Part shown: in pieces, positions 34,058-55,163 of the stretch
Layout of the letters: each line of letters starts with the position of its first letter
Numbering within the stretch: position 1 is the stretch's first letter
Origin: Escherichia phage vB_EcoM_LNA4
Reading direction: 5' to 3' (one strand)
Length of the DNA: 64,000 nt
Sequence record: MZ311864.1
Notes under the pieces: generated by a model
Seen by the model: only the letters and a program-made list of their open reading frames with translations
Databases searched by the model: none
What the model was told of the DNA's origin: nothing
Program-made: the position numbers and the translations under genes

Positions 34058-34545
34058 TCGTTACTCAAATACTCGTCCAAATACCGGACATCCAGTTCCC
34101 ATTCCTCTCGCTTACTCCGTTCATGATACAAGGCAAATGCCTCGCTAACGTACTTCTCTGCGACCTGTCTGGAGACACCGTTCACCTTCATGAAGTGACG
34201 AAGGGCGATCTCTCCTCTTCCACGAATACCAGCAAGGCCGATATGTTTTACTTCGTGACATGACGGGCAGAGCGCGATAAGACCTTTCAGCGTTATCTTA
34301 CCATTACCAAAGTCCCAGATTTCGTGACACTCAACAGGGTGCTTATTCCCTTTACCACCACAAATCTCACATCTGTAATTGGCTTTGGCATAGCATTTCT
34401 TTCTTACGACATCCCATTGGGATTTAGTGAGGTGAGAGCGTAAGTTAGTAAACCAAGCTGTTTTCGGAACCAGTTCAATCTCTAATTTCAATTCACCTCC
34501 ACGAAGCTGCGATAACGACATCAATTGCTCTTTCCCAGCATTCAC
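34054..34545 (-). CDS. HNH homing endonuclease
   Basis: CEICGGKGNKHPVECHEIWDF...CPSCHEVKH. Confidence 0.6.
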   Translation of the reverse strand: MNAGKEQLMSLSQLRGGELKLEIELVPKTAWFTNLRSHLTKSQWDVVRKKCYAKANYRCEICGGKGNKHPVECHEIWDFGNGKITLKGLIALCPSCHEVKHIGLAGIRGRGEIALRHFMKVNGVSRQVAEKYVSEAFALYHERSKREEWELDVRYLDEYLSND

Positions 34546-35005
34546 CGAGAAGATTTAATCCTTGCCAGTTGGCAGGATCATCAATGCGTGTATCATATTC
34601 ATTCATTTTAACTCCCCAGATTGCGTCATATGGGGATGCCTCTACAAAGCGACGACCAGCATCTCTGTGGGTCAGTGCTGCCTCAAGGATGGATCGATTC
34701 GCCTTCATTTTCAGAACAAGACCGTTTGTTACAATGTCCATCCGGTTTTCTTCCCAGACACTATTGTCAAAGTCCCTGACTTTACGGCCCAGCGCTTTTG
34801 CCTCATTTGGATTATTAACCGTGGCAATACGTGCAGCAATCTCTTTATCATCAAAGAGCATTGCTTTCTGGAACATCATAAAGTGCTCAACCGTGAAGAA
34901 TTCATAGCCACCACAACGGATAGGGATTACCTGACGGAAGTGGTTGCTGAACATATCACGGTAAGTGAAGAAGAAAACATGCTTATCAGTTATTCTCATC
35001 ACCAA
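34493..35005 (-). CDS. NADAR (YbiA-like) domain protein
   Basis: FSNHF, TVEHFMMFQKAMLF, NPNEAKALGRKV and EASPYDAIWGV match NADAR/DUF1768 signatures. Confidence 0.7.
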   Translation of the reverse strand: MVMRITDKHVFFFTYRDMFSNHFRQVIPIRCGGYEFFTVEHFMMFQKAMLFDDKEIAARIATVNNPNEAKALGRKVRDFDNSVWEENRMDIVTNGLVLKMKANRSILEAALTHRDAGRRFVEASPYDAIWGVKMNEYDTRIDDPANWQGLNLLGECWERAIDVVIAASWR

Positions 35006-38277: not shown

Positions 38278-38723
38278 TATGCACGTACCTCTGTTACCTT
38301 CACGGTTGCTTCACCGCGAAGCTGGATGTTAGAACCATCATCGAGAGTGAGAATGATATCGTCGCCACTGATTTTGTGACCCTTAACGACATAATCTTTA
38401 CCCCACATCTCTACCTTATCGCCCATCACGACATTTTTCGCCTTGTAATCACCAGGCAGGCGATCTTCATCGCTAACCGCTTCGTAAAGGTCGCTAAAAG
38501 CCTGTGGAGACATTGCTGTGAACTGATCGCCCACCTTTACAATGTAATCGCCTGGAAACGCCTGAACGCCGTTAACGTCCATATTTCGGATATCCCGTGT
38601 ATGGATCTCAGAATCTTTCCATACCCCGGTCTCGATCCACTTGGTCACTTGACCAACCCCGGTGCTAGACCCATTGAATACGTGTGCTTCAACCTCTTGA
38701 GGTTTACGACTATAGAATCCCAT
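38277..38723 (-). CDS. hypothetical protein
   Basis: Start at MGFYSRK; TAATG overlap with ligase gene. Confidence 0.35.
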   Translation of the reverse strand: MGFYSRKPQEVEAHVFNGSSTGVGQVTKWIETGVWKDSEIHTRDIRNMDVNGVQAFPGDYIVKVGDQFTAMSPQAFSDLYEAVSDEDRLPGDYKAKNVVMGDKVEMWGKDYVVKGHKISGDDIILTLDDGSNIQLRGEATVKVTEVRA

Positions 38724-40027
38724 TAGTAGACTGGCTCCCATGTTAATGTGTTAAGTTCACGTACACTCTGCCCCACTGGGAACTGAGGTACACCATCATC
38801 AGTACGCGACTGGAATGTAAAGTTGATGAAACCACCAACCAACAGCAACATCTTCGCCTGAGAACGTTCTGCGTGTGTGCCTTTCATTTTACAGTTGAAT
38901 CGTGTTCCGTCCTGTTCTTCGCAAAGCAGAACACCTTCACCATTTTTGTCCTCTACAGAATCAAGGACTTTGGCCTCACCGTCCTGGAACAGCTTCCATT
39001 TCTGGAGATCAGTGGATCGCTGCCCGAACTCATATTTACCTTTGAAGTTTCGGATGATAACACCCTCAAACCCGGCTTCCATGTAATAACCGATAAAGCG
39101 TTTCACAGATGCTTCGTCTTTCACGAACTCGCCATGAACGATAGCAATCTTAGGAACATCAATCTCACATTCTACAGCTTCAGCCACAGCATTAAGATCA
39201 GCCATACGGGTTTGATCATGATCCTGAGAGTGCCAAGGACTGTGTGCATTCACTGGAATATCAAAGATATGATACTCAAGGTCAAGACTCGAATAACCGC
39301 TATAACGATCAACATCCTTCACAGGTTTATACGTTGAAACAGCCCACACGTTACCGTCAAAGTCTTTCCAGAGGTGTTCCCCTGCTGCAACCGCCTTGTT
39401 GTAACGCTTGATATCTGCTTGATAATCTTTTTCGATCTCAGCTTCAATCTGCTCAGGTGTACGCCACTTCTTAGCGAGAGCAACAATCTTCTGTAGACTC
39501 AGGCCATGAATATACAGTTCCCCATCGAACTTGTCAAACCCGGAATGCTCTGCAAGTTCTTTAACCTGTTGCAAAAGAGCACCCTGCACTGGATACGTCT
39601 TATTACCACGGCTATTGAACACTGGAATGCCGTCCTTGTCAAGCGTGACAAGAGCACGAACGCCGTCGAGCTTTGGCTGCACATAGGCAGGATAAACGAT
39701 AGCTGAAAATCGTTTGATCGCATCATGCGCCAGCATAGGAGAGAAGTTCTCTTCCGTCTGCAACTCTTCCTTAGTCTCACGATAACCTAAACGGACTTGC
39801 TTTTCCCATTTGGATCTTGCTTCAAGAACCGCTTGGAATACGGCAGTAGTCTCATTGGAACGGCCAATGTTTTTCATTTCACACTTGGTACGCTTTTGTT
39901 GAATCTTTCCGTTTTCCTTACCGAAAGAAACGACAACCTCATCACCTTCTGTGGTTACATTCCAAACTTGGTACGATCCGTCTTTGTTGAGAGCGTACAG
40001 TGTTGGTGTGTCTAAACTAATTGACAT
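38723..40027 (-). CDS. ATP-dependent DNA ligase
   Basis: Motif I KLDGVRAL, motif III FDGELY, motif IV EGVIIRN; 434 aa. Confidence 0.85.
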   Translation of the reverse strand: MSISLDTPTLYALNKDGSYQVWNVTTEGDEVVVSFGKENGKIQQKRTKCEMKNIGRSNETTAVFQAVLEARSKWEKQVRLGYRETKEELQTEENFSPMLAHDAIKRFSAIVYPAYVQPKLDGVRALVTLDKDGIPVFNSRGNKTYPVQGALLQQVKELAEHSGFDKFDGELYIHGLSLQKIVALAKKWRTPEQIEAEIEKDYQADIKRYNKAVAAGEHLWKDFDGNVWAVSTYKPVKDVDRYSGYSSLDLEYHIFDIPVNAHSPWHSQDHDQTRMADLNAVAEAVECEIDVPKIAIVHGEFVKDEASVKRFIGYYMEAGFEGVIIRNFKGKYEFGQRSTDLQKWKLFQDGEAKVLDSVEDKNGEGVLLCEEQDGTRFNCKMKGTHAERSQAKMLLLVGGFINFTFQSRTDDGVPQFPVGQSVRELNTLTWEPVY

Positions 40028-40803
40028 TATTTCTCCTTCTTCTGTAAAGGCGTTTTTCCTTCAAGGTGGTCTTCAACCATCTTGATTAAACCGGGATTGC
40101 TGAAAGCATCAACAGCACCTGTACGATAAACGATAACACCCGCATCTTCATACATCAACTGCTCATCATAGCGAACACCGGGGTTAACAACCACCACCTT
40201 TGTTCCTCTCATGACAGCAGGGAAAAGTTCCCAGTTGAAGTTGATCACTGTGTTTGAACATCCAACCACAATCACCATATCCTCAGATGTCAAGCTGTCC
40301 AAGGTTGAGTATAGCTGCCCGTATGCAGGCGCAGTTTCACCAAAAAAGATAACGTTAGGCTTACACCAACCATAATCATCTGGGTCAATCTGCTCATAAC
40401 CAACATCAATGATCTTTTTAGGTGATCCAGCCTCAGTCTCAATCACCAACTCTTTCAGATAACCATGAATATAAAGCGTATCTTCTTTAGGAACACCTGC
40501 ACGTTCCAATAGATCATCAACGTTAGTTGTCAAGTTAATAACCTGGTTCGGATAGTTTTTATACCACTCTGCCACACGCATATGTGCAGCATTAGGATGC
40601 ACAGTTTGCAGTTCTGCACGACGCTTGTTATAAAAGGTGTGCGTCTTATGGTAAAAATTACCACGAAAGGCATGAATGTTGCAGACCTCTTCAAGGTCAT
40701 ACTCATCCCACAAGGCCTTACCGGAGTCGGTGTCAGTACGGAATGTACGAACACCGCTCTCAGCAGAGAAACCAGCACCACTAATTACATATAAACGCCT
40801 CAT
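40027..40803 (-). CDS. Sir2-family NAD-dependent deacylase/NAD-utilising enzyme
   Basis: GAGFSAESGVRTFR, TTNVDDLLERAG, IHGYL and VIFFGE sirtuin motifs; no obvious Zn-ribbon Cys4. Confidence 0.75.
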   Translation of the reverse strand: MRRLYVISGAGFSAESGVRTFRTDTDSGKALWDEYDLEEVCNIHAFRGNFYHKTHTFYNKRRAELQTVHPNAAHMRVAEWYKNYPNQVINLTTNVDDLLERAGVPKEDTLYIHGYLKELVIETEAGSPKKIIDVGYEQIDPDDYGWCKPNVIFFGETAPAYGQLYSTLDSLTSEDMVIVVGCSNTVINFNWELFPAVMRGTKVVVVNPGVRYDEQLMYEDAGVIVYRTGAVDAFSNPGLIKMVEDHLEGKTPLQKKEK

Positions 40804-41024: not shown

Positions 41025-41909
41025 TCACTGTAATTTCAATGAGTTACGCAGACGACGCTCTTGAGCATCACGGGTTTCCTGCGGAACGCTGTGAATAGAA
41101 TCATTGCCATGACGGTTCTCTACCACCAAGCTAATGACGCGATACCCATTCTCGGCTGCGAGGTCGAGGTATGGTTTCAGTTCTTTTTCACTGGTAGAGG
41201 TGTTAGACACGATGATCCTACGGAAATTCCAACCCATCATGTCCTTAACTTCTGACTGGCACCATGTGTGTGCCGCCTGAATATTCTCAGGTTTCCAGTC
41301 ATAAACACCATCTTCCGTATAGTGGAATTTATCTGCTTCACAGACAGGCCACAAACCCTCTGACAGCATCTTTCCCGTTGTCATATTACGAGCACCAATC
41401 AGATACGCACCAGGTTGTTCGTGAACTATATGCGGGTCAGAATCATCACAAATTTCAAACATTAAAGTCAAACAAGATTGCCCTACATGTGTCCACATGG
41501 ATGGGTGGTTTGCCTTTTCAACACCACTCAAAATATGAGTTTTTGCAATATCTGCAAATTCGGAATCAAGAGTTCCGGTGGTGGATACTAAAACATCGCC
41601 TTTATAAATTGAGGCCGCTGCCATAAAGCCATTAACTTTACGAGGTACACACACCAACTGGTCTCGTGGAACATCGGTATTATTCTCGAAGCGGTTGAAA
41701 ATCTTCGTGAAAGGCCAGATAACAACGTTGTCTTCTGCATCAACAACCATGCCACGGCACTCCAGAAGACGTGCGTCTGTGTGCCACAGGTTATCCCAGA
41801 ACACATTGTTCTTATATTTCAGAACAGACAGACCCGCGAACGGGCCTTCGGTATAAGTCTTTTTGGTTACAAGCTTTTTAGCAACAAGGTCATCTACGTT
41901 AAATTTCAT
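41025..41909 (-). CDS. hypothetical protein
   Basis: 294-aa ORF; contains RKVNG but motif order does not fit a ligase. Confidence 0.45.
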   Translation of the reverse strand: MKFNVDDLVAKKLVTKKTYTEGPFAGLSVLKYKNNVFWDNLWHTDARLLECRGMVVDAEDNVVIWPFTKIFNRFENNTDVPRDQLVCVPRKVNGFMAAASIYKGDVLVSTTGTLDSEFADIAKTHILSGVEKANHPSMWTHVGQSCLTLMFEICDDSDPHIVHEQPGAYLIGARNMTTGKMLSEGLWPVCEADKFHYTEDGVYDWKPENIQAAHTWCQSEVKDMMGWNFRRIIVSNTSTSEKELKPYLDLAAENGYRVISLVVENRHGNDSIHSVPQETRDAQERRLRNSLKLQ

Positions 41910-42474: not shown

Positions 42475-43071
42475 TTATCCGTGATCAGCAGTGTAAATTG
42501 GTTTAGCAAGGCACATCAGAACAGCTTCACGCATCGTCAAAGGACGACCATGCACATCCCAACCCACATCAAGAATACGTCCACCAGGGGCCGTGTAGGA
42601 GCCGTGGCTGTGACCGTGCAGCATTACCGACCCGTGGTGAGCTTTATTCCATGATGCAAACGGATAGTGGGACATACACACCTTCACCTTTTCTTTCCCG
42701 GTGCTGAACTCAATTTCCTTATAGTCCACGACTTCATGACCAAACTCACGGAAGATACGTTTTGTCTGATGGTTGTCATGATTACCACCAACCAGAATGA
42801 TCTTCCCATTGATACGGCTCAGGATATCACGAACTTTTGGCTCAACTTGCTTACCATAGGCAATAACGAAATCACCAAGGTGTGCCACCACATCGTCAGG
42901 CTTGACGTTTTTGTTCCACGTCTTAACCATGTCATCGTTCATTTTGACAACGGAGGCTGAGTCTTCTTTCGGACCATACAGGTTCTTACGGAACTTATCA
43001 CACGATGGGAAACCAAGAATGTTGGTGTGCCACCAGTGAGTGTCTGACGTGACGTGATCAATTTGAATCAT
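42475..43071 (-). CDS. calcineurin-like metallophosphoesterase (Ser/Thr phosphatase-like)
   Basis: GDFVIAYG, GGNHD and GHSHG metal-binding motifs. Confidence 0.7.
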   Translation of the reverse strand: MIQIDHVTSDTHWWHTNILGFPSCDKFRKNLYGPKEDSASVVKMNDDMVKTWNKNVKPDDVVAHLGDFVIAYGKQVEPKVRDILSRINGKIILVGGNHDNHQTKRIFREFGHEVVDYKEIEFSTGKEKVKVCMSHYPFASWNKAHHGSVMLHGHSHGSYTAPGGRILDVGWDVHGRPLTMREAVLMCLAKPIYTADHG

Positions 43072-44358: not shown

Positions 44359-44676
44359 ATGGGGTACATCGCGTCAGGTAAGCACATCTACGGTAACTTC
44401 GAACTGAAGTTGCTGTCGGTGACCTGCGCCTCGTCCAACGACAAGATTGTGTACCTCTACATGCGTCATCAGTATCACTACTTCAAGTCTCTCCGGAAAA
44501 CGTACCATGAGTCGCTTGACAGTATTGCTGATGCCACAGGATTATCGAGGGCAACTGTTGCCAGGTGTGTGAGCAACCTTGAAAAGATAAAGTGGTTGAC
44601 AAAGGACACAACACGCACCAATATGGGCCACAACAAAACGATTTACGAAATTCACAATTGGACAGAGGAGAAATAA
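44359..44676 (+). CDS. helix-turn-helix DNA-binding protein
   Basis: SIADATGLSRATVARCVSNLE HTH segment; GGAGGA RBS. Confidence 0.5.
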   Translation: MGYIASGKHIYGNFELKLLSVTCASSNDKIVYLYMRHQYHYFKSLRKTYHESLDSIADATGLSRATVARCVSNLEKIKWLTKDTTRTNMGHNKTIYEIHNWTEEK

Positions 44677-44677
44677 A

Positions 44678-45490
44678 ATGAGTATTGAATTACGTTTGAA
44701 CAAACTGGTTGTTCCTGTAGACCACTTCACCTTTAAGGGTGGTGAGGAACAGGTCAAAATTGACCTAAAACACGCACCAAAAGGCGGTATTGGTTTCGTA
44801 GATATCACTGCCAAAATCAAAAATTCAACTGATGTCATGGCACTGGCTATGTTGGTGGATGCGTGTTCCCGTTTGGAAGGATTGCATAACCACGCAGAGT
44901 TCACCCTGCACCTTCCATACATCCCGTATGCACGTCAAGACCGTGTAATGAACCCAGGTGAAGCGTTATCTATTAAGGTTTTCGCAAACATTGTCAACTC
45001 GCTTGGTTTCGACACGGTTATCGTTGATGACCCGCACAGCGATGTCTCTGCTGCACTGCTCAATAACGTCCGTATCCGTGGTCAGGATGTTCTTATTTCC
45101 GAGATGAAAGATCTTGGCAACTCCACATTGCATAGCAACTCTTTGGTTGTGGTAGCACCTGATGCGGGTGCTCGCAAGAAAGCCCATAAGGTTGCTGACC
45201 GATTCAGTCTTCCTCTTGTTGAGGCTGGTAAAGTACGTGATTTGCAGACCAACGAAATCACTGGTACTGCGGTGTTCGGAGATGTTGAAGGTAAAGTGTG
45301 TATGATTGTTGATGATATCTGCGACGGTGGTCGTACATTCATCGCCCTTGCACAGGCCCTGAAAGAAAACGGTGCGAAACGTGTTATCCTGTACGTTACT
45401 CACGGTATCTTTTCTTTCGGTAAACAGGTCATCCTCGATGGTGGGGTTGATGAAATCTATGCGTATCATGACTGGACGGAGAATTTTTAA
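44678..45490 (+). CDS. prs: ribose-phosphate pyrophosphokinase-family protein (Prs-like)
   Basis: YARQDR, DDPHSD and PRPP-binding loop VDDICDGGRT motifs; 270 aa. Confidence 0.75.
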   Translation: MSIELRLNKLVVPVDHFTFKGGEEQVKIDLKHAPKGGIGFVDITAKIKNSTDVMALAMLVDACSRLEGLHNHAEFTLHLPYIPYARQDRVMNPGEALSIKVFANIVNSLGFDTVIVDDPHSDVSAALLNNVRIRGQDVLISEMKDLGNSTLHSNSLVVVAPDAGARKKAHKVADRFSLPLVEAGKVRDLQTNEITGTAVFGDVEGKVCMIVDDICDGGRTFIALAQALKENGAKRVILYVTHGIFSFGKQVILDGGVDEIYAYHDWTENF

Positions 45491-46023
45491 TGACTGAATC
45501 AACAAGTTTTATTTTTGTTGTCGATACAGATTCCTATGCTGGTAATTTTGAGCGTGACATGTGCGCTCATATCACCGGGCAGATTGGTGAATGCGGTGTT
45601 GGTGCAGAGTACCGCCCCGATATTGAAGACCTAAAAGAAGACCATTACGATTTTGATCTCGAAAAAATCTGTGAGTGGTTAGAAAATAATGTTCTCCAGG
45701 TTCCAGATGAACACGCCTGCTATCGCCCATGTGCGATTTACCCAACACCGGGGCGTACAAACAACGGCGGTGGTGTGCATTCTGATGTGACCGCAAATAA
45801 TCCATTCAAGTGGCCTGCATACGAAAGTGTAGCTATCTACATCCGTGAAGAACCACCTGAAGATGTGGTACGTTTCATGGTCATCCGTGCTAACACTTTC
45901 TATATTCGTGCGACCAAGTGGTCACCAGCAAAAGAAATCAAGGTAAAAGGTTGCAGATTGGTTAAAGAAACGACAACTGTGAAAACAGAATCGAAATCTT
46001 TAGACTTTTCACTTGACATCTAA
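45490..46023 (+). CDS. hypothetical protein within NAD operon
   Basis: 177-aa ORF with ATGA overlap to Prs-like gene; Cys/His-containing, no recognisable motif. Confidence 0.5.
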   Translation: MTESTSFIFVVDTDSYAGNFERDMCAHITGQIGECGVGAEYRPDIEDLKEDHYDFDLEKICEWLENNVLQVPDEHACYRPCAIYPTPGRTNNGGGVHSDVTANNPFKWPAYESVAIYIREEPPEDVVRFMVIRANTFYIRATKWSPAKEIKVKGCRLVKETTTVKTESKSLDFSLDI

Positions 46024-46076
46024 ACCAAACGGGGTGTAGAATCACCCCATCAAAACACACAAAGGAGAAACAAAAC

Positions 46077-54284: not shown

Positions 54285-54313
54285 TTGCAAAAGATTGTTT
54301 TCACTGATAAAGT
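54285..54313 (+). promoter_or_regulatory. sigma70-like promoter
   Basis: TTGCAA, 17-bp spacer, TAAAGT upstream of tRNA at 54322. Confidence 0.3.
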
Positions 54314-54321
54314 AATTACAT

Positions 54322-54410
54322 GGTTCTTTGACCGAGAGGCCGATGGTAGCAGGCTGTTAACCTGCCTGGAGTAATCCACGACGAAGGTTCGAATCCTTCA
54401 GGAACCGCCA
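54322..54410 (+). tRNA. tRNA with GTT anticodon (Asn) and long variable arm
   Basis: Canonical loop CTGTTAA on GCAGG/CCTGC stem, 17-nt variable arm with TGGA/TCCA stem, T-arm GAAGGTTCGAATCCTTC, G73, CCA. Confidence 0.6.
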
Positions 54411-54443
54411 AATTAGGTGATACGCTACCTTAAGTGCGAACTT

Positions 54444-54520
54444 GAAAATTAATGGGGCCGTGGCTGACAAGGTAATGGTGCCGCACTGTCTATGCGGAAA
54501 ATGAGGGTTCGATCCCCTTC
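54444..54520 (+). tRNA. tRNA-Asp (GTC)
   Basis: Loop CTGTCTA on CCGCA/TGCGG stem, T-arm GAGGGTTCGATCCCCTT, CCA. Confidence 0.6.
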
Positions 54521-54713
54521 GGTCTCGCCAATTTGATATGTTGATGTAAATTGCCGGAAGGCACTCAAAATGAGTTCGACATATCAAACCAAATACGCTC
54601 TTGCAGGAAAGGTTAGCCTCCCTGCAATGTCACACTAGGTGATCAGAGCGGATCAAATTAGCTAGCCAGCGATACCAGTTGCAGTGTCTGGGACAATTAA
54701 AATTCTGCACCTT

Positions 54714-54791
54714 CGGAGCGTAGCGCAGTCTGGTCAGCGTGGGAGCCTTGGATGCTCTGGGTCGCAGGTTCGAATCCTGCCGCTCCGACCA
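54714..54791 (+). tRNA. tRNA-Pro (TGG)
   Basis: Loop CTTGGAT, T-arm GCAGGTTCGAATCCTGC, CCA. Confidence 0.8.
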
Positions 54792-54796
54792 ATTTA

Positions 54797-54872
54797 GCAG
54801 GTATAGTTCAACTGGACAGAGCATCAGTTTACGAAGCTGAGAATCGGGGTTCGAATCCCTGTATCTGCACCA
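54797..54872 (+). tRNA. tRNA-Arg (ACG)
   Basis: Loop TTACGAA, T-arm CGGGGTTCGAATCCCTG, CCA. Confidence 0.8.
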
Positions 54873-54907
54873 AATTAAGGCTTGGATTTCTTCGGACCCA
54901 AGCGCAC

Positions 54908-54984
54908 GGGCGATTGATGGAATTGGTATACGTGTCGGATTTAGATTCCGAATTTTGGGGGTTCGAGTCCCCTGTCGCCCACCA
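54908..54984 (+). tRNA. tRNA-Leu (TAG), short variable arm
   Basis: Loop TTTAGAT on TCGGA/TCCGA stem, A73, T-arm GGGGGTTCGAGTCCCCT, CCA; no long variable arm. Confidence 0.6.
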
Positions 54985-54991
54985 ATCCTTC

Positions 54992-55067
54992 GGGACTGTA
55001 GCTCAGTTGGTAGAGCACCTGATTGAAGATCAGGGTGTCGGTGGTTCGAATCCACTCGGTCCCGCCA
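54992..55067 (+). tRNA. tRNA-Phe (GAA)
   Basis: Loop TTGAAGA on CCTGA/TCAGG stem, T-arm GGTGGTTCGAATCCACT, CCA. Confidence 0.8.
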
Positions 55068-55073
55068 AATAAT

Positions 55074-55146
55074 TGCGAGCTAGAATTCTGGTGAATTCAC
55101 GAGTCTCATAAGCTTGTTCAGAGGGGTTCGATTCCGCTGCTCGCAA
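55074..55146 (+). tRNA. tRNA with CAT anticodon (Met or Ile2), no encoded CCA
   Basis: Perfect acceptor TGCGAGC/GCTCGCA, loop CTCATAA, T-loop TTCGATT; 3' end lacks CCA. Confidence 0.6.
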
Positions 55147-55163
55147 CTAACAGAGGACTTAAT

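Follow-up and report, generated by a model that had tools for sequence, protein, structure and literature searches.

A conserved gene between Adps and Namat is a candidate optional third gene of a predicted NARP1 operon in a Seunavirus-type phage

NARP1 provides phages with a means to overcome many NAD+-depleting defences. Bacteria answer it with NADases whose products NARP1 cannot use, as in the case of aRES and its product ADPR-1''P, and the reply of the phage is an accessory phosphatase. So far, every accessory gene found at a NARP1 locus has uncovered another layer of this arms race. In the 64,000-nt stretch of phage DNA analysed here (the window), two genes for NAD+ enzymes enclose a short reading frame, ORF177. 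The question raised by this locus is whether ORF177 is a further accessory of NARP1 and, if so, what it might contribute.

The locus and the predicted NARP1 enzymes

An earlier note on this DNA had described the flanking genes as Prs-like and NAMPT-like. Their closest matches, read together with the description of NARP1 by Osterman et al. (2024, bioRxiv 10.1101/2024.02.11.579819), point instead to Adps and Namat of NARP1. In BLASTP comparisons the upstream protein was 40% identical to the experimentally validated Adps of Vibrio phage Gary (E=9e-49, 150 bits) and 35% identical to SpbetaL1 Adps, and its match to the best cellular Prs structure was weaker (~90 bits, E about 1e-24). The upstream enzyme is accordingly assigned on sequence to the group of validated Adps rather than to cellular Prs. 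The downstream protein matched 9W5X and 9W5W, identified as crystal structures of SpbetaL1 Namat (PMC12774641), with E=2.9e-125 (phmmer), compared with about 1e-45 for human or mouse NAMPT, and is likewise predicted to group with Namat rather than with Nampt. The pair thus forms a predicted NARP1 operon, which would reconstitute NAD+ from ADPR by way of ADPR-PP. Upstream of Adps lies a 105-aa gene with HTH-type Pfam matches, including a sub-threshold match to PF24409 ('wHTH-PRTase associated'); this gene is kept upstream of Adps in phages 4MG and KE23.

Table 1. Features of the ORF177 locus, in positions of the window
Feature	Position	Strand	Remarks
Winged-HTH gene, 105 aa	44359..44676	+	Opens the co-directional block; 1 nt separates its end from Adps
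Predicted Adps (ADP-ribose pyrophosphate synthetase, Prs-like fold; NARP1 enzyme 1)	44678..45490	+	Pfam Pribosyltran / Pribosyl_synth
GGAG Shine-Dalgarno sequence for ORF177	45478..45481	+	Inside the Adps reading frame, 8 nt upstream of the ORF177 start codon
ORF177	45490..46023	+	177 aa, ATG start; accessory gene, phrog_23621 family, predicted ferredoxin-like core
Putative sigma-70-like promoter before Namat	46013..46042	+	TTGACA-N18-TAGAAT; 11/12 consensus positions match
Hairpin	46031..46048	+	GGGGTG-TAGAAT-CACCCC; loop is the -10 box of the putative Namat promoter
Predicted Namat (nicotinamide ADP-ribose transferase, NAMPT-like fold; NARP1 enzyme 2)	46077..47762	+	Pfam NAPRTase

ORF177 itself was present exactly as the earlier note had it, with both of the Cys/His peptides quoted there (CAHITGQIGECGVG and CYRPCAIYP) in its translation, and the gap of 53 bp between its end and the Namat ATG at 46077 was also correct. 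The overlap with the upstream gene had been given as ATGA; it is TAATG, in which the Adps stop codon (45488-45490) and the ORF177 start codon (45490-45492) have one base in common. The GGAG sequence ahead of ORF177 arises from the synonymous codons ACG GAG in Adps. These codons were found in all ORF177-bearing phages, whereas relatives without ORF177 have ACT, ACA or ACC followed by GAA. The 31-nt junction that contains GGAG and TAATG was unchanged even in locus L008, whose synonymous sites are otherwise saturated. From these signals ORF177 is predicted to be translationally coupled to Adps. The dN/dS values against phage 4MG were 0.059 for ORF177, 0.068 for Adps and 0.134 for Namat, and no paralogue of ORF177 was found in the window. 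Because ORF177 has a family match (see below), many homologues, a low dN/dS and its own Shine-Dalgarno sequence, it is not a chance reading frame. We conclude that it is a genuine gene under purifying selection comparable to that on the flanking genes.

Namat has its own ribosome binding site (GGAG at 46064-46067) and a putative promoter whose -35 box falls in the last codons of ORF177 (S-L-D-I-stop). Relatives without ORF177 keep the same promoter element between Adps and Namat. Since Namat appears to possess its own conserved sigma-70-like promoter element, ORF177 would be coupled to Adps only in this window. The earlier suggestion of coupling inside the operon therefore stands for the Adps side, where GGAG and TAATG are found, and not for Namat, which lies behind its own predicted promoter. 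The hairpin at this promoter has a folding energy of -11.9 kcal/mol (z = -3.2), and its stem is maintained by compensatory changes (GGGTGCA/TGCACCC in FENT2 and GGGCG/CGCCC in KP12).

A large phage family with recurring synteny

ORF177 matched one PHROGs family only, phrog_23621, a family of unknown function (E=4e-108, residues 1-177 of 177), which is also matched by its distant relatives P0047 and the L052 homologue. A word-indexed search gave 81 homologues, and an exhaustive HMM search extended the family to at least 1,761 representatives of clusters formed at 50% identity. A genome scan covering 185,579 species added only 11 MAG contigs, some of them jumbo-phage. The family thus appears to be essentially phage-only, which leaves no cellular operons from which context could be drawn. 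The earlier description of an uncharacterised gene with no placeable motif was borne out in that no curated domain library recognises ORF177: searches of Pfam, NCBIfam, PADLOC and PDB sequence profiles gave no match, and BFVD contained a single unnamed viral match and nothing else. Every database name for the protein is 'hypothetical protein', and a full-text literature search with the ORF177 motif and the PHROG identifier found no mention of it. Fusion partners of family members were uninformative (DUF6575 in P0020, none in P0083).

ORF177 separates Adps from Namat in the window, and a homologue does so at loci L007, L008, L020, L158-L160, L162 and L163. The order persists over considerable divergence: ORF177 is 76% identical in L158, 58-60% identical in L008, L159 and L160 (Namat 50-53%), 60% identical in L162 (Namat only 36%) and 51% identical in L163 (Adps 46%, Namat 41%). 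In L092, Adps is directly upstream of the homologue. In L162 and L163 the homologue is tightly coupled to Namat instead, with a 10-nt gap; since the coupling partner has switched, operon membership was kept through rearrangement.

The earlier note had asked whether homologues always sit between the two enzyme genes in related phages. They do not, as Adps and Namat are intact and adjacent in FENT2, KE23 and KP12, close relatives of the same subfamily, and ORF177 is absent. ORF177 is therefore an optional accessory and not a core subunit. Such absence had been named in advance as evidence against a place in the operon, as had homologues at random positions unrelated to NAD genes. Each pattern was found in part, the second in that ~85% of family lineages have no recognisable NAD/ADPr gene within 6 kb (tblastn), although the three-gene order recurs elsewhere. 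The neighbourhoods are otherwise heterogeneous and mostly accessory regions. These mixed surroundings and the frequent lack of an NAD/ADPr neighbour were counted against an NAD role, as were the subfamily relatives without ORF177 and the fact that Bas63 NARP1 works as two genes.

Large phages unrelated to these also carry the family close to NAD+ and ADPr genes, in independent and looser arrangements. The richest set is in L052, where NMNAT-Nudix, YAcAr, Nampt, the ORF177 homologue, an overlapping NADAR gene, NDT-like, Adpp-like Macro, SIR2 and Adps-like genes occur together. Homologues are found with NMNAT-Nudix, Nampt and an RNA ligase in L025, directly downstream of a Nudix gene in L059, 1.8 kb from a NARP1-AP operon in L048, near an NDT-metallophosphoesterase fusion in L024 and L146 and near NADAR in L153. 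Outside the three-gene operons, the genes next to family members thus include those of NARP2, NADAR, Macro, Nudix and metallophosphoesterase proteins as well as Apyc1-like genes. In Bacillus phage G the family member gp332 is two genes from gp334, an NAD+ enzyme of the ADP-ribosyl-cyclase superfamily (Iyer et al. 2021, PMC7824862). Counted by independent lineages, the top recurrent neighbour families were metallophosphoesterase (6), an unknown family (5), Adps (4), Namat/Nampt (4), a second unknown family (4) and NADAR (4). Core NAD-salvage genes are close by in at least 5 of 82 lineages (p = 6e-5 to 0.025 if base rates of 0.5-2% are assumed), and the nearest NAD/ADPr gene is closer to the family member than a uniform model predicts (p = 0.017); these enrichment statistics are rough, with assumed base rates in place of a matched control.

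Our preferred interpretation, which we put forward tentatively and at a little short of even confidence, is that ORF177 is an optional third gene of NARP1, whose product extends or protects the pathway as a stand-alone small-molecule enzyme, or possibly a tight binder, with an NAD+-derived nucleotide as its ligand. The foremost alternative is that ORF177 serves counter-defence or host takeover independently, by a chemistry unrelated to NAD+, and is placed here because the Adps-Namat spacer tolerates insertions and anti-defence genes cluster. Its patchy presence among close relatives whose locus is otherwise identical, the location of most homologues in heterogeneous accessory regions and the Apyc1-like cyclic-nucleotide phosphodiesterases (non-NAD) directly downstream in L138 and L140 fit this alternative. 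We nevertheless consider it rather unlikely, as the three-gene order outlasts both divergence of the flanking enzymes to 36-46% identity and the change from coupling with Adps to coupling with Namat, and the list of recurrent neighbours is dominated by NAD/ADPr enzymes.

Conserved residues, predicted fold and possible roles

Among 226 family representatives less than 50% identical to one another, ~20 positions are 93-100% conserved, including four Arg, two Asp, Glu, Tyr, Asn, Ser and Cys. The near-invariant residues are D12, T13, Y16, G18, N19, F20, E21, R22, T29, G30, G33, C35, G38, D73, C77, R79, P80, S113, P122, R133 and R156. This polar, Arg-rich constellation centres on the beta1-alpha1 loop (DTDxYAGNFER) and the TGQxGEC loop that follows. 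The conserved positions are kept across phages of very different hosts, a pattern typical of a small-molecule site and not of an inhibitor of a host protein. Structure prediction and a fold search, as proposed in the earlier note, gave a confident AlphaFold model (pLDDT 93.6), whose core would be of a generic ferredoxin-like type (beta-alpha-beta-beta-alpha-beta, as in ACT, RRM or RAMP domains), and no convincing fold match in the PDB.

According to the preferred interpretation, ORF177 would be a functional optional third gene of the NARP1 operon in this Seunavirus-type (rV5-like) phage, co-transcribed and translationally coupled with Adps, with Namat following from its own promoter. Its ligand may be a phosphorylated nucleotide derived from NAD+, for example a derivative of ADP-ribose or a related immune product, so that ORF177 would widen or protect the substrate supply for NAD+ rebuilding. 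What we infer here is the ligand class, any catalysis and the benefit to NARP1. A more specific proposal, that phrog_23621 is a new class of enzyme acting on an unrecognised defence product or immune signal derived from NAD+, which it would make harmless or usable by NARP1, is unlikely on present evidence. If true, Adpp and RyDEP would be joined by a third 'extended NARP1' pathway, and the reasoning that connected Adpp with the discovery of aRES would point to bacterial NAD+-degrading chemistry that is still undiscovered.

The ferredoxin-like fold could also be read as RRM/RAMP-like. With its conserved Arg residues and nearby genes for RNA ligase, phosphoesterase and tRNA, ORF177 might then be an RNA-binding or RNA-repair factor, which we regard as improbable. 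A regulator, scaffold, chaperone or channeling subunit that partners Adps or Namat, or a protein inhibiting a host competitor for ADPR, is less probable again. Translational coupling suggests expression matched to Adps, and Adps and Namat alone formed no stable complex in published pull-downs (PMC12774641); against this, the family mostly occurs without Adps or Namat nearby, NARP1 of Bas63 and SpbetaL1 works without ORF177, and polar residues so strictly conserved among phages whose hosts are unrelated are ill-suited to a protein-protein interface. Since its presence is optional and most lineages have no recognisable NAD gene nearby, a dedicated chaperone or subunit of Adps or Namat is unlikely. 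Thus, of the earlier idea of a third component, the part that stood is the recurrence of the three-gene arrangement in divergent operons, for which Adpp and RyDEP are precedents, and the chaperone variant did not hold up. The Cys/His residues, a feature noticed earlier, are unevenly conserved: C35 (96%), C77 (82%) and C25 (79%) are conserved, and C81 (42%), H75 (56%), H97 (55%) and H27 (10%) are poorly kept, so that a zinc-binding regulatory protein is very doubtful and a zinc finger was rejected for want of a fourth conserved metal ligand, C25 being Thr in 37 of 226 members and no zinc-finger family or fold being matched.

ORF177 is a well-defined, strongly conserved accessory gene, with a fold that the model suggests is new, in therapeutically relevant rV5-like phages of Enterobacter, Cronobacter, E. 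coli and Salmonella. It may represent a new accessory step in NAD+ counter-defence, a proposal that can be tested. Its ligand could give a name to a large unannotated 'dark' phage family and could reveal further host defence chemistry or protection of phage NAD+ rebuilding.

Comparison with known systems

ORF177 showed no homology to known accessories. Comparison with aRad1, an aRES inhibitor family of ~70 aa characterised by a conserved Trp and a loop containing TGQ, gave an hhalign probability of 4%; the 'TGQ' common to both is a chance tripeptide, and ORF177 has 177 residues. cRec, predicted in NAD+/ADPr and RNA-ligase neighbourhoods of jumbo phages (Iyer et al. 2021, PMC7824862), resembles ORF177 in lying near NAD+-processing enzymes and RNA ligases and in the conserved acidic residues that end its first strand. 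By its description cRec is a Receiver (flavodoxin-like) domain of phages and cells, whereas the ORF177 family is essentially phage-only and the protein has a modelled ferredoxin-like topology and no CheY-like matches; on model topology and the lack of such matches, a Rec/cRec fold was rejected. Ferredoxin-like small-molecule domains of the ACT, PII and acylphosphatase type may count among the closest known to ORF177.

The archetypal NARP1 of Bas63 (Vequintavirinae) and SpbetaL1 consists of two genes (Osterman et al. 2024). It has the same kind of Adps and Namat pair as the window, Bas63 belonging to the same phage subfamily as the source of that pair, but no gene in between, where the window and a set of divergent relatives have ORF177. 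In the NARP1-AP operon of Vibrio phage Gary, the third gene of Adps-Adpp-Namat encodes the Macro phosphatase Adpp; a Macro gene is present in 15% of NARP1 phages and was proposed to supply the pathway with a different product of NAD+ breakdown (Osterman et al., bioRxiv 10.64898/2026.01.28.702374). Adpp occupies the same slot as ORF177 and both are optional; ORF177 has no Macro sequence or fold (PF14519, PF01661, PF20016) and was rejected as an Adpp. RyDEP, an RyR-domain glycosidase encoded beside NARP1 in mycobacteriophage DyoEdafos, converts the immune nucleotide 2'/3'cADPR to NARP1-usable ADPR (PMC13232231); ORF177 lacks an RyR Repeat12-like domain and was rejected as a RyDEP. Adpp and RyDEP would thus play in other phages the part proposed here for ORF177, and RyDEP, like ORF177, is a small accessory adjoining Adps and Namat whose family also occurs away from NARP1.

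Layout of the locus and identity of the flanking genes

The 177-aa ORF proposed in the earlier note was present in the window, its translation contained the quoted peptides, and the predicted 53 bp separated its stop codon from the downstream gene. The proposed ATGA overlap with the upstream gene was incorrect; because the upstream TAA stop codon occupies 45488-45490, the overlap is TAATG and a single base is shared. ORF177 matched phrog_23621 over its full length (E=4e-108), a word-indexed search returned 81 homologs, and an exhaustive profile search returned 1,761 family representatives clustered at 50% identity, of which 741 had E<=1e-30. In the comparison with phage 4MG, dN/dS was 0.059 for ORF177, 0.068 for Adps and 0.134 for Namat, and the ORF177 value was 0.14 relative to the more distant L008 locus. 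Judged by these sequence comparisons, ORF177 is a real gene.

The flanking genes had been described as Prs-like and NAMPT-like. While the folds are related, closer sequence matches identify the products as Adps and Namat of the NAD+ reconstitution pathway NARP1, in which Adps pyrophosphorylates ADP-ribose and Namat forms NAD+ from ADPR-PP and nicotinamide (Osterman et al. 2024, bioRxiv 10.1101/2024.02.11.579819). With the validated Adps of Vibrio phage Gary, the 270-aa Adps shared 40% identity (E=9e-49), a better match than to any cellular Prs structure; its identity to SpbetaL1 Adps was 35%. Similarly, the 561-aa Namat matched the SpbetaL1 Namat crystal structures 9W5X/9W5W with E=3e-125, as compared to ~1e-45 for mammalian NAMPT. 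The 3.5-kb locus was ~94% identical in DNA sequence to Enterobacter phage EC152, and Cronobacter phage GAP31 and Escherichia phage 4MG were also close, relatives belonging to the Vequintavirinae, genus Seunavirus; phage Bas63 is a member of this subfamily.

A winged-HTH gene precedes Adps. It had a sub-threshold Pfam match to PF24409 ('wHTH-PRTase associated') and a PHROGs label of replication-initiator N-terminus, and its product may regulate the operon. Upstream of the NARP1 block, the opposite strand encodes NADAR-domain and SIR2-family proteins, a DNA ligase and an RNA ligase 1 homolog, so that genes for NAD+/ADP-ribose functions and for nucleic-acid repair are abundant here; a tRNA gene array lies downstream.

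Coordinates of features in the window and in the loci compared
Feature	Sequence	Position	Strand	Remarks
NADAR-domain gene	window	34541-34996	-	
DNA ligase gene	window	38723-40027	-	
SIR2-family gene	window	40027-40803	-	
RNA ligase 1 gene	window	41025-41909	-	
Calcineurin-like metallophosphoesterase	window	42475-43071	-	also L019, L024, L038-40, L059, L146, L153
Winged-HTH gene	window	44359-44676	+	105 aa; ends 1 nt upstream of Adps
Adps gene	window	44678-45490	+	upstream of ORF177
GGAG	window	45478-45481	+	8 nt 5′ of ORF177 ATG
ORF177	window	45490-46023	+	ATG start
Putative Namat promoter element	window	46013-46042	+	11/12 consensus positions
Hairpin around −10 box	window	46031-46048	+	−11.9 kcal/mol, z = −3.2
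Namat gene	window	start 46077	+	downstream of ORF177
22-tRNA gene array	window	49029-55147	+	
Hairpin/promoter	window	46013-46048		
Hairpin/promoter	L001	3330-3372		
Hairpin/promoter	L003	3984-4020		
Hairpin	L162	154-210		
Hairpin	L163	358-415		
NAD+/ADP-ribose gene island	L052	900-12190		
NARP1-AP operon	L048	4503-8547		
phrog_22676	L013	5474-5980		upstream of homolog, 4-nt overlap; also L111
phrog_22676	L124	3340-3846		upstream of homolog, 4-nt overlap
phrog_22676	L099	573-1037		downstream of homolog, overlapping
phrog_22676	L025, L026, L131			further loci
Apyc1-like gene	L138/L140	6660-7679		
Apyc1-like gene	L118/L119	3003-3848		
Apyc1-like gene	L019	11481-12275		

Retention and loss of ORF177 in NARP1 operons

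The GACTGGACGGAGAATTTTTAATGACTGAATC junction was common to all of the ORF177-bearing phages examined. In these phages the GGAG sequence is supplied by Adps codons ACG GAG; where ORF177 is missing, the relatives use ACT, ACA or ACC plus GAA for this Thr-Glu pair and lack GGAG. The junction was also 100% identical in L008 despite saturation of other synonymous sites (pS ~0.72), suggesting that the coupling signal is under selection. By its start and stop signals, ORF177 is coupled to Adps in the window.

The NARP1 locus of FENT2, KE23 and Klebsiella phage KP12 is intact and lacks ORF177, with Adps and Namat directly adjacent across a 60-70-bp spacer. This spacer contains a conserved TTGACA-N17/18-TA(G/C)AAT element, a −10 hairpin, the ribosome-binding site AAAGGAGA and the Namat ATG. 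Since ORF177-less relatives share this spacer, ORF177 sits exactly in the handful of bases that separate the Adps stop codon from the Namat promoter; in the window, the −35 box of the putative promoter is encoded by the final ORF177 codons. The loop of the conserved intergenic hairpin is the −10 box of the near-consensus promoter, and the stem is kept in relatives through compensatory changes (GGGGTG/CACCCC, GGGTGCA/TGCACCC, GGGCG/CGCCC). The hairpin may act in control of the promoter or in the stability or processing of RNA. Namat probably also has its own transcription start, at a promoter that is a candidate by consensus match alone.

Thus, some close relatives with an intact operon lack ORF177 and others keep it, and ORF177 is an optional accessory rather than a core subunit. 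Its presence was decoupled from Adps similarity among the phages compared. Adps of KP12, which lacks ORF177, and of 4MG are each 86% identical to that of the window, and L008 contains ORF177 although its Adps is only 77% identical. Identity to the window in other operons was 76% for ORF177, 78% for Adps and 88% for Namat in L158; 58-60% for ORF177 and 50-53% for Namat in L008, L159 and L160; 60% and 36%, respectively, in L162; and 51% for ORF177, 46% for Adps and 41% for Namat in L163. In L092, the homolog was 53% identical with Adps immediately upstream. From these identities, the Adps-ORF177-Namat order is judged to be old. In L162 and L163, Adps is followed by a 63-nt hairpin spacer, the ORF177 homolog, a 10-nt gap and Namat, a spacing that indicates coupling to Namat and not to Adps; a similar GGGTGTTA...TAACACCC hairpin is placed between Adps and the homolog instead in the divergent operons. 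Equally distant homologs in L161 and L164 are located outside NARP1. ORF177 is therefore a selected, expressed-looking, optional gene retained inside NARP1 operons across deep divergence.

A frameshift-ridden copy of the HTH-Adps-ORF177-Namat locus was found in L005 (KR296685.1, Salmonella phage 21, UNVERIFIED), in which 'PotC', 'terminase' and other annotations are spuriously assigned to tiny ORFs.

Distribution and genomic neighbors of the ORF177 family

The survey covered 153 loci, taken from contigs of viral and metagenomic origin and grouped at 70% identity into 109 lineages; in 82 of these lineages, the flanks extended over 6 kb or more. The majority of family members were located in the accessory regions of phages with large or jumbo genomes. 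A scan of 185,579 species, each represented by one genome, identified only 11 MAG contigs with the family, some demonstrably jumbo-phage, a lower bound because the scan depends on a sequence pattern; the family is thus essentially phage-only.

The NARP1-embedded group had core NAD-salvage genes (Adps, Namat, Nampt, NMNAT-Nudix) within 6 kb, as did, independently, L048, L052, L025 and L059, and ADP-ribose-processing genes (NADAR, Macro, NDT/ARC-like, Nudix) were present in phage G, L024, L146, L153, L033 and L006. An NAD/ADPr neighbor was not found by tblastn in ~85% of lineages. Five independent co-localizations among 82 lineages gave p = 6e-5 to 0.025 at assumed base rates of 0.5-2%, and the nearest NAD/ADPr gene was at a mean of 1.7 kb versus 2.75 kb expected under uniformity (p = 0.017), both rough values without a matched control. 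The most recurrent neighbor was a calcineurin-like metallophosphoesterase of the phrog_547 type (6 independent lineages), followed by phrog_22676 (5) and by Adps, Namat/Nampt, an unknown 97-aa family and NADAR (4 each); Apyc1-like phosphodiesterase, Thg1-like, DNA ligase, DHFR, radical SAM, sigma factor and P-loop kinase genes occurred in 3 each. In this large, phage-only family, the neighbors that recur most are genes for NAD+/ADP-ribose enzymes and for other counter-defence functions directed at nucleotide signals. We consider a counter-defence passenger unrelated to NAD unlikely; the deeply conserved three-gene order, together with NAD/ADPr-rich contexts elsewhere, supports a functional link. 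The 'third component' of the earlier note is partly supported, as an accessory and not as a core subunit; both observations that the note had named as refuting, homologs at positions unrelated to NAD genes and absence from close relatives with an intact operon, were made in part.

Several loci deserve mention. The L052 island of a jumbo phage (IMGVR_UViG_3300033984_000473, 233 kb) is dense in NAD+/ADP-ribose genes: NMNAT-Nudix, GltS-like (glutamate-synthase-like), YAcAr-SLOG, Nampt, an unknown gene and the ORF177 homolog are followed by an overlapping NADAR gene, NDT-like, Adpp-like Macro, SIR2 and Adps-like genes. In metagenomic phage L048, the homolog is 1.8 kb upstream of an extended operon containing Adps, a phrog_3668 'hydrolase', an Adpp-like Macro gene, a small ORF and Namat. 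The phage G homolog, gp332, is two genes from gp334, cited as a novel NAD+ enzyme of the ADP-ribosyl-cyclase superfamily by Iyer et al. 2021 (PMC7824862). phrog_22676, a second unannotated family (~120-170 aa, motif RVYIRQ...DSYDSITF...GRFWAKL), adjoins ORF177 homologs, often with overlapping start and stop codons, and its product may be a partner protein. In L024 and L146 the metallophosphoesterase is fused to a nucleoside-2-deoxyribosyltransferase/ARC-like domain. The Apyc1-like (anti-Pycsar) genes have a metallo-beta-lactamase fold, and in L138 and L140 this gene is directly downstream of the homolog.

Protein model, possible function and known NARP1 accessories

An AlphaFold2 model built from a 51-sequence alignment (pLDDT 93.6, pTM 0.85) began with beta1 (2-13) and alpha1 (21-29), followed by a two-helix insertion. 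Three short strands then span residues 81-99, one further strand 113-118 and helix alpha2 124-135, and a long strand covers 152-164. Foldseek found no PDB match at E<=1e-3, a BFVD search returned a single unnamed match, and Pfam, NCBIfam, PADLOC and PDB profile searches gave zero matches. Among 226 diverse members, D12, T13, Y16, G18, N19, F20, E21, R22, A26, T29, G30, G33, C35, G38, D73, R79, P80, S113, P122, R133 and R156 were 93-100% conserved, C77 was 82% and C25 79% conserved, and window ORF177 retains all of them. The strongest family motif, DTDxYAGNFER, spans the beta1-alpha1 loop, where ACT-type and acylphosphatase-type ferredoxin folds typically bind a ligand or phosphate; by analogy, this loop is a putative ligand/phosphate site. 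The four invariant Arg residues, together with acidic, hydroxyl and Cys residues, suggest binding of a phosphorylated small molecule. The polar residues hardly vary even among phages whose hosts are unrelated, which favors a universal small-molecule target over a host protein. An RRM-like RNA or RNA-repair factor seems improbable, a protein partner or inhibitor of Adps, Namat or a host enzyme is quite improbable, and a zinc-binding regulator is highly improbable.

We tentatively propose that ORF177 is a stand-alone enzyme acting on a phosphorylated nucleotide derived from NAD+; a sponge for such a nucleotide is less likely. Its role in NARP1 operons would be to supply the ADPR/NAD+ pool or to protect it, as the analogy to Adpp and RyDEP suggests. 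Adpp, present in 15% of NARP1 loci, is a Macro-domain phosphatase of ADPR-1''P, and an Adps-Adpp-Namat operon of Vibrio phage Gary overcomes aRES defence (bioRxiv 10.64898/2026.01.28.702374); RyDEP is an RyR-domain glycosidase that opens 2'/3'cADPR to ADPR (PMC13232231). ORF177 is neither of these, as hhalign gave 0.3% against Adpp and no Macro or RyR match was obtained in any search. GAP31 and 4MG were not among the entries of the Macro table, and Adpp-like Macro genes occur alongside ORF177 homologs in L048 and L052. Profile comparison also ruled out the aRES inhibitor aRad1, and the model lacks the Receiver fold proposed for cRec (Iyer et al. 2021), a comparison made at the level of the fold.

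The archetypal NARP1 is a two-gene operon, genes 79-80 of phage Bas63 (Osterman et al. 2024, bioRxiv 10.1101/2024.02.11.579819), whereas in the window ORF177 lies between Adps and Namat. NARP1 operons with accessory genes were already known; the extended operon described here is new in carrying a novel accessory family.
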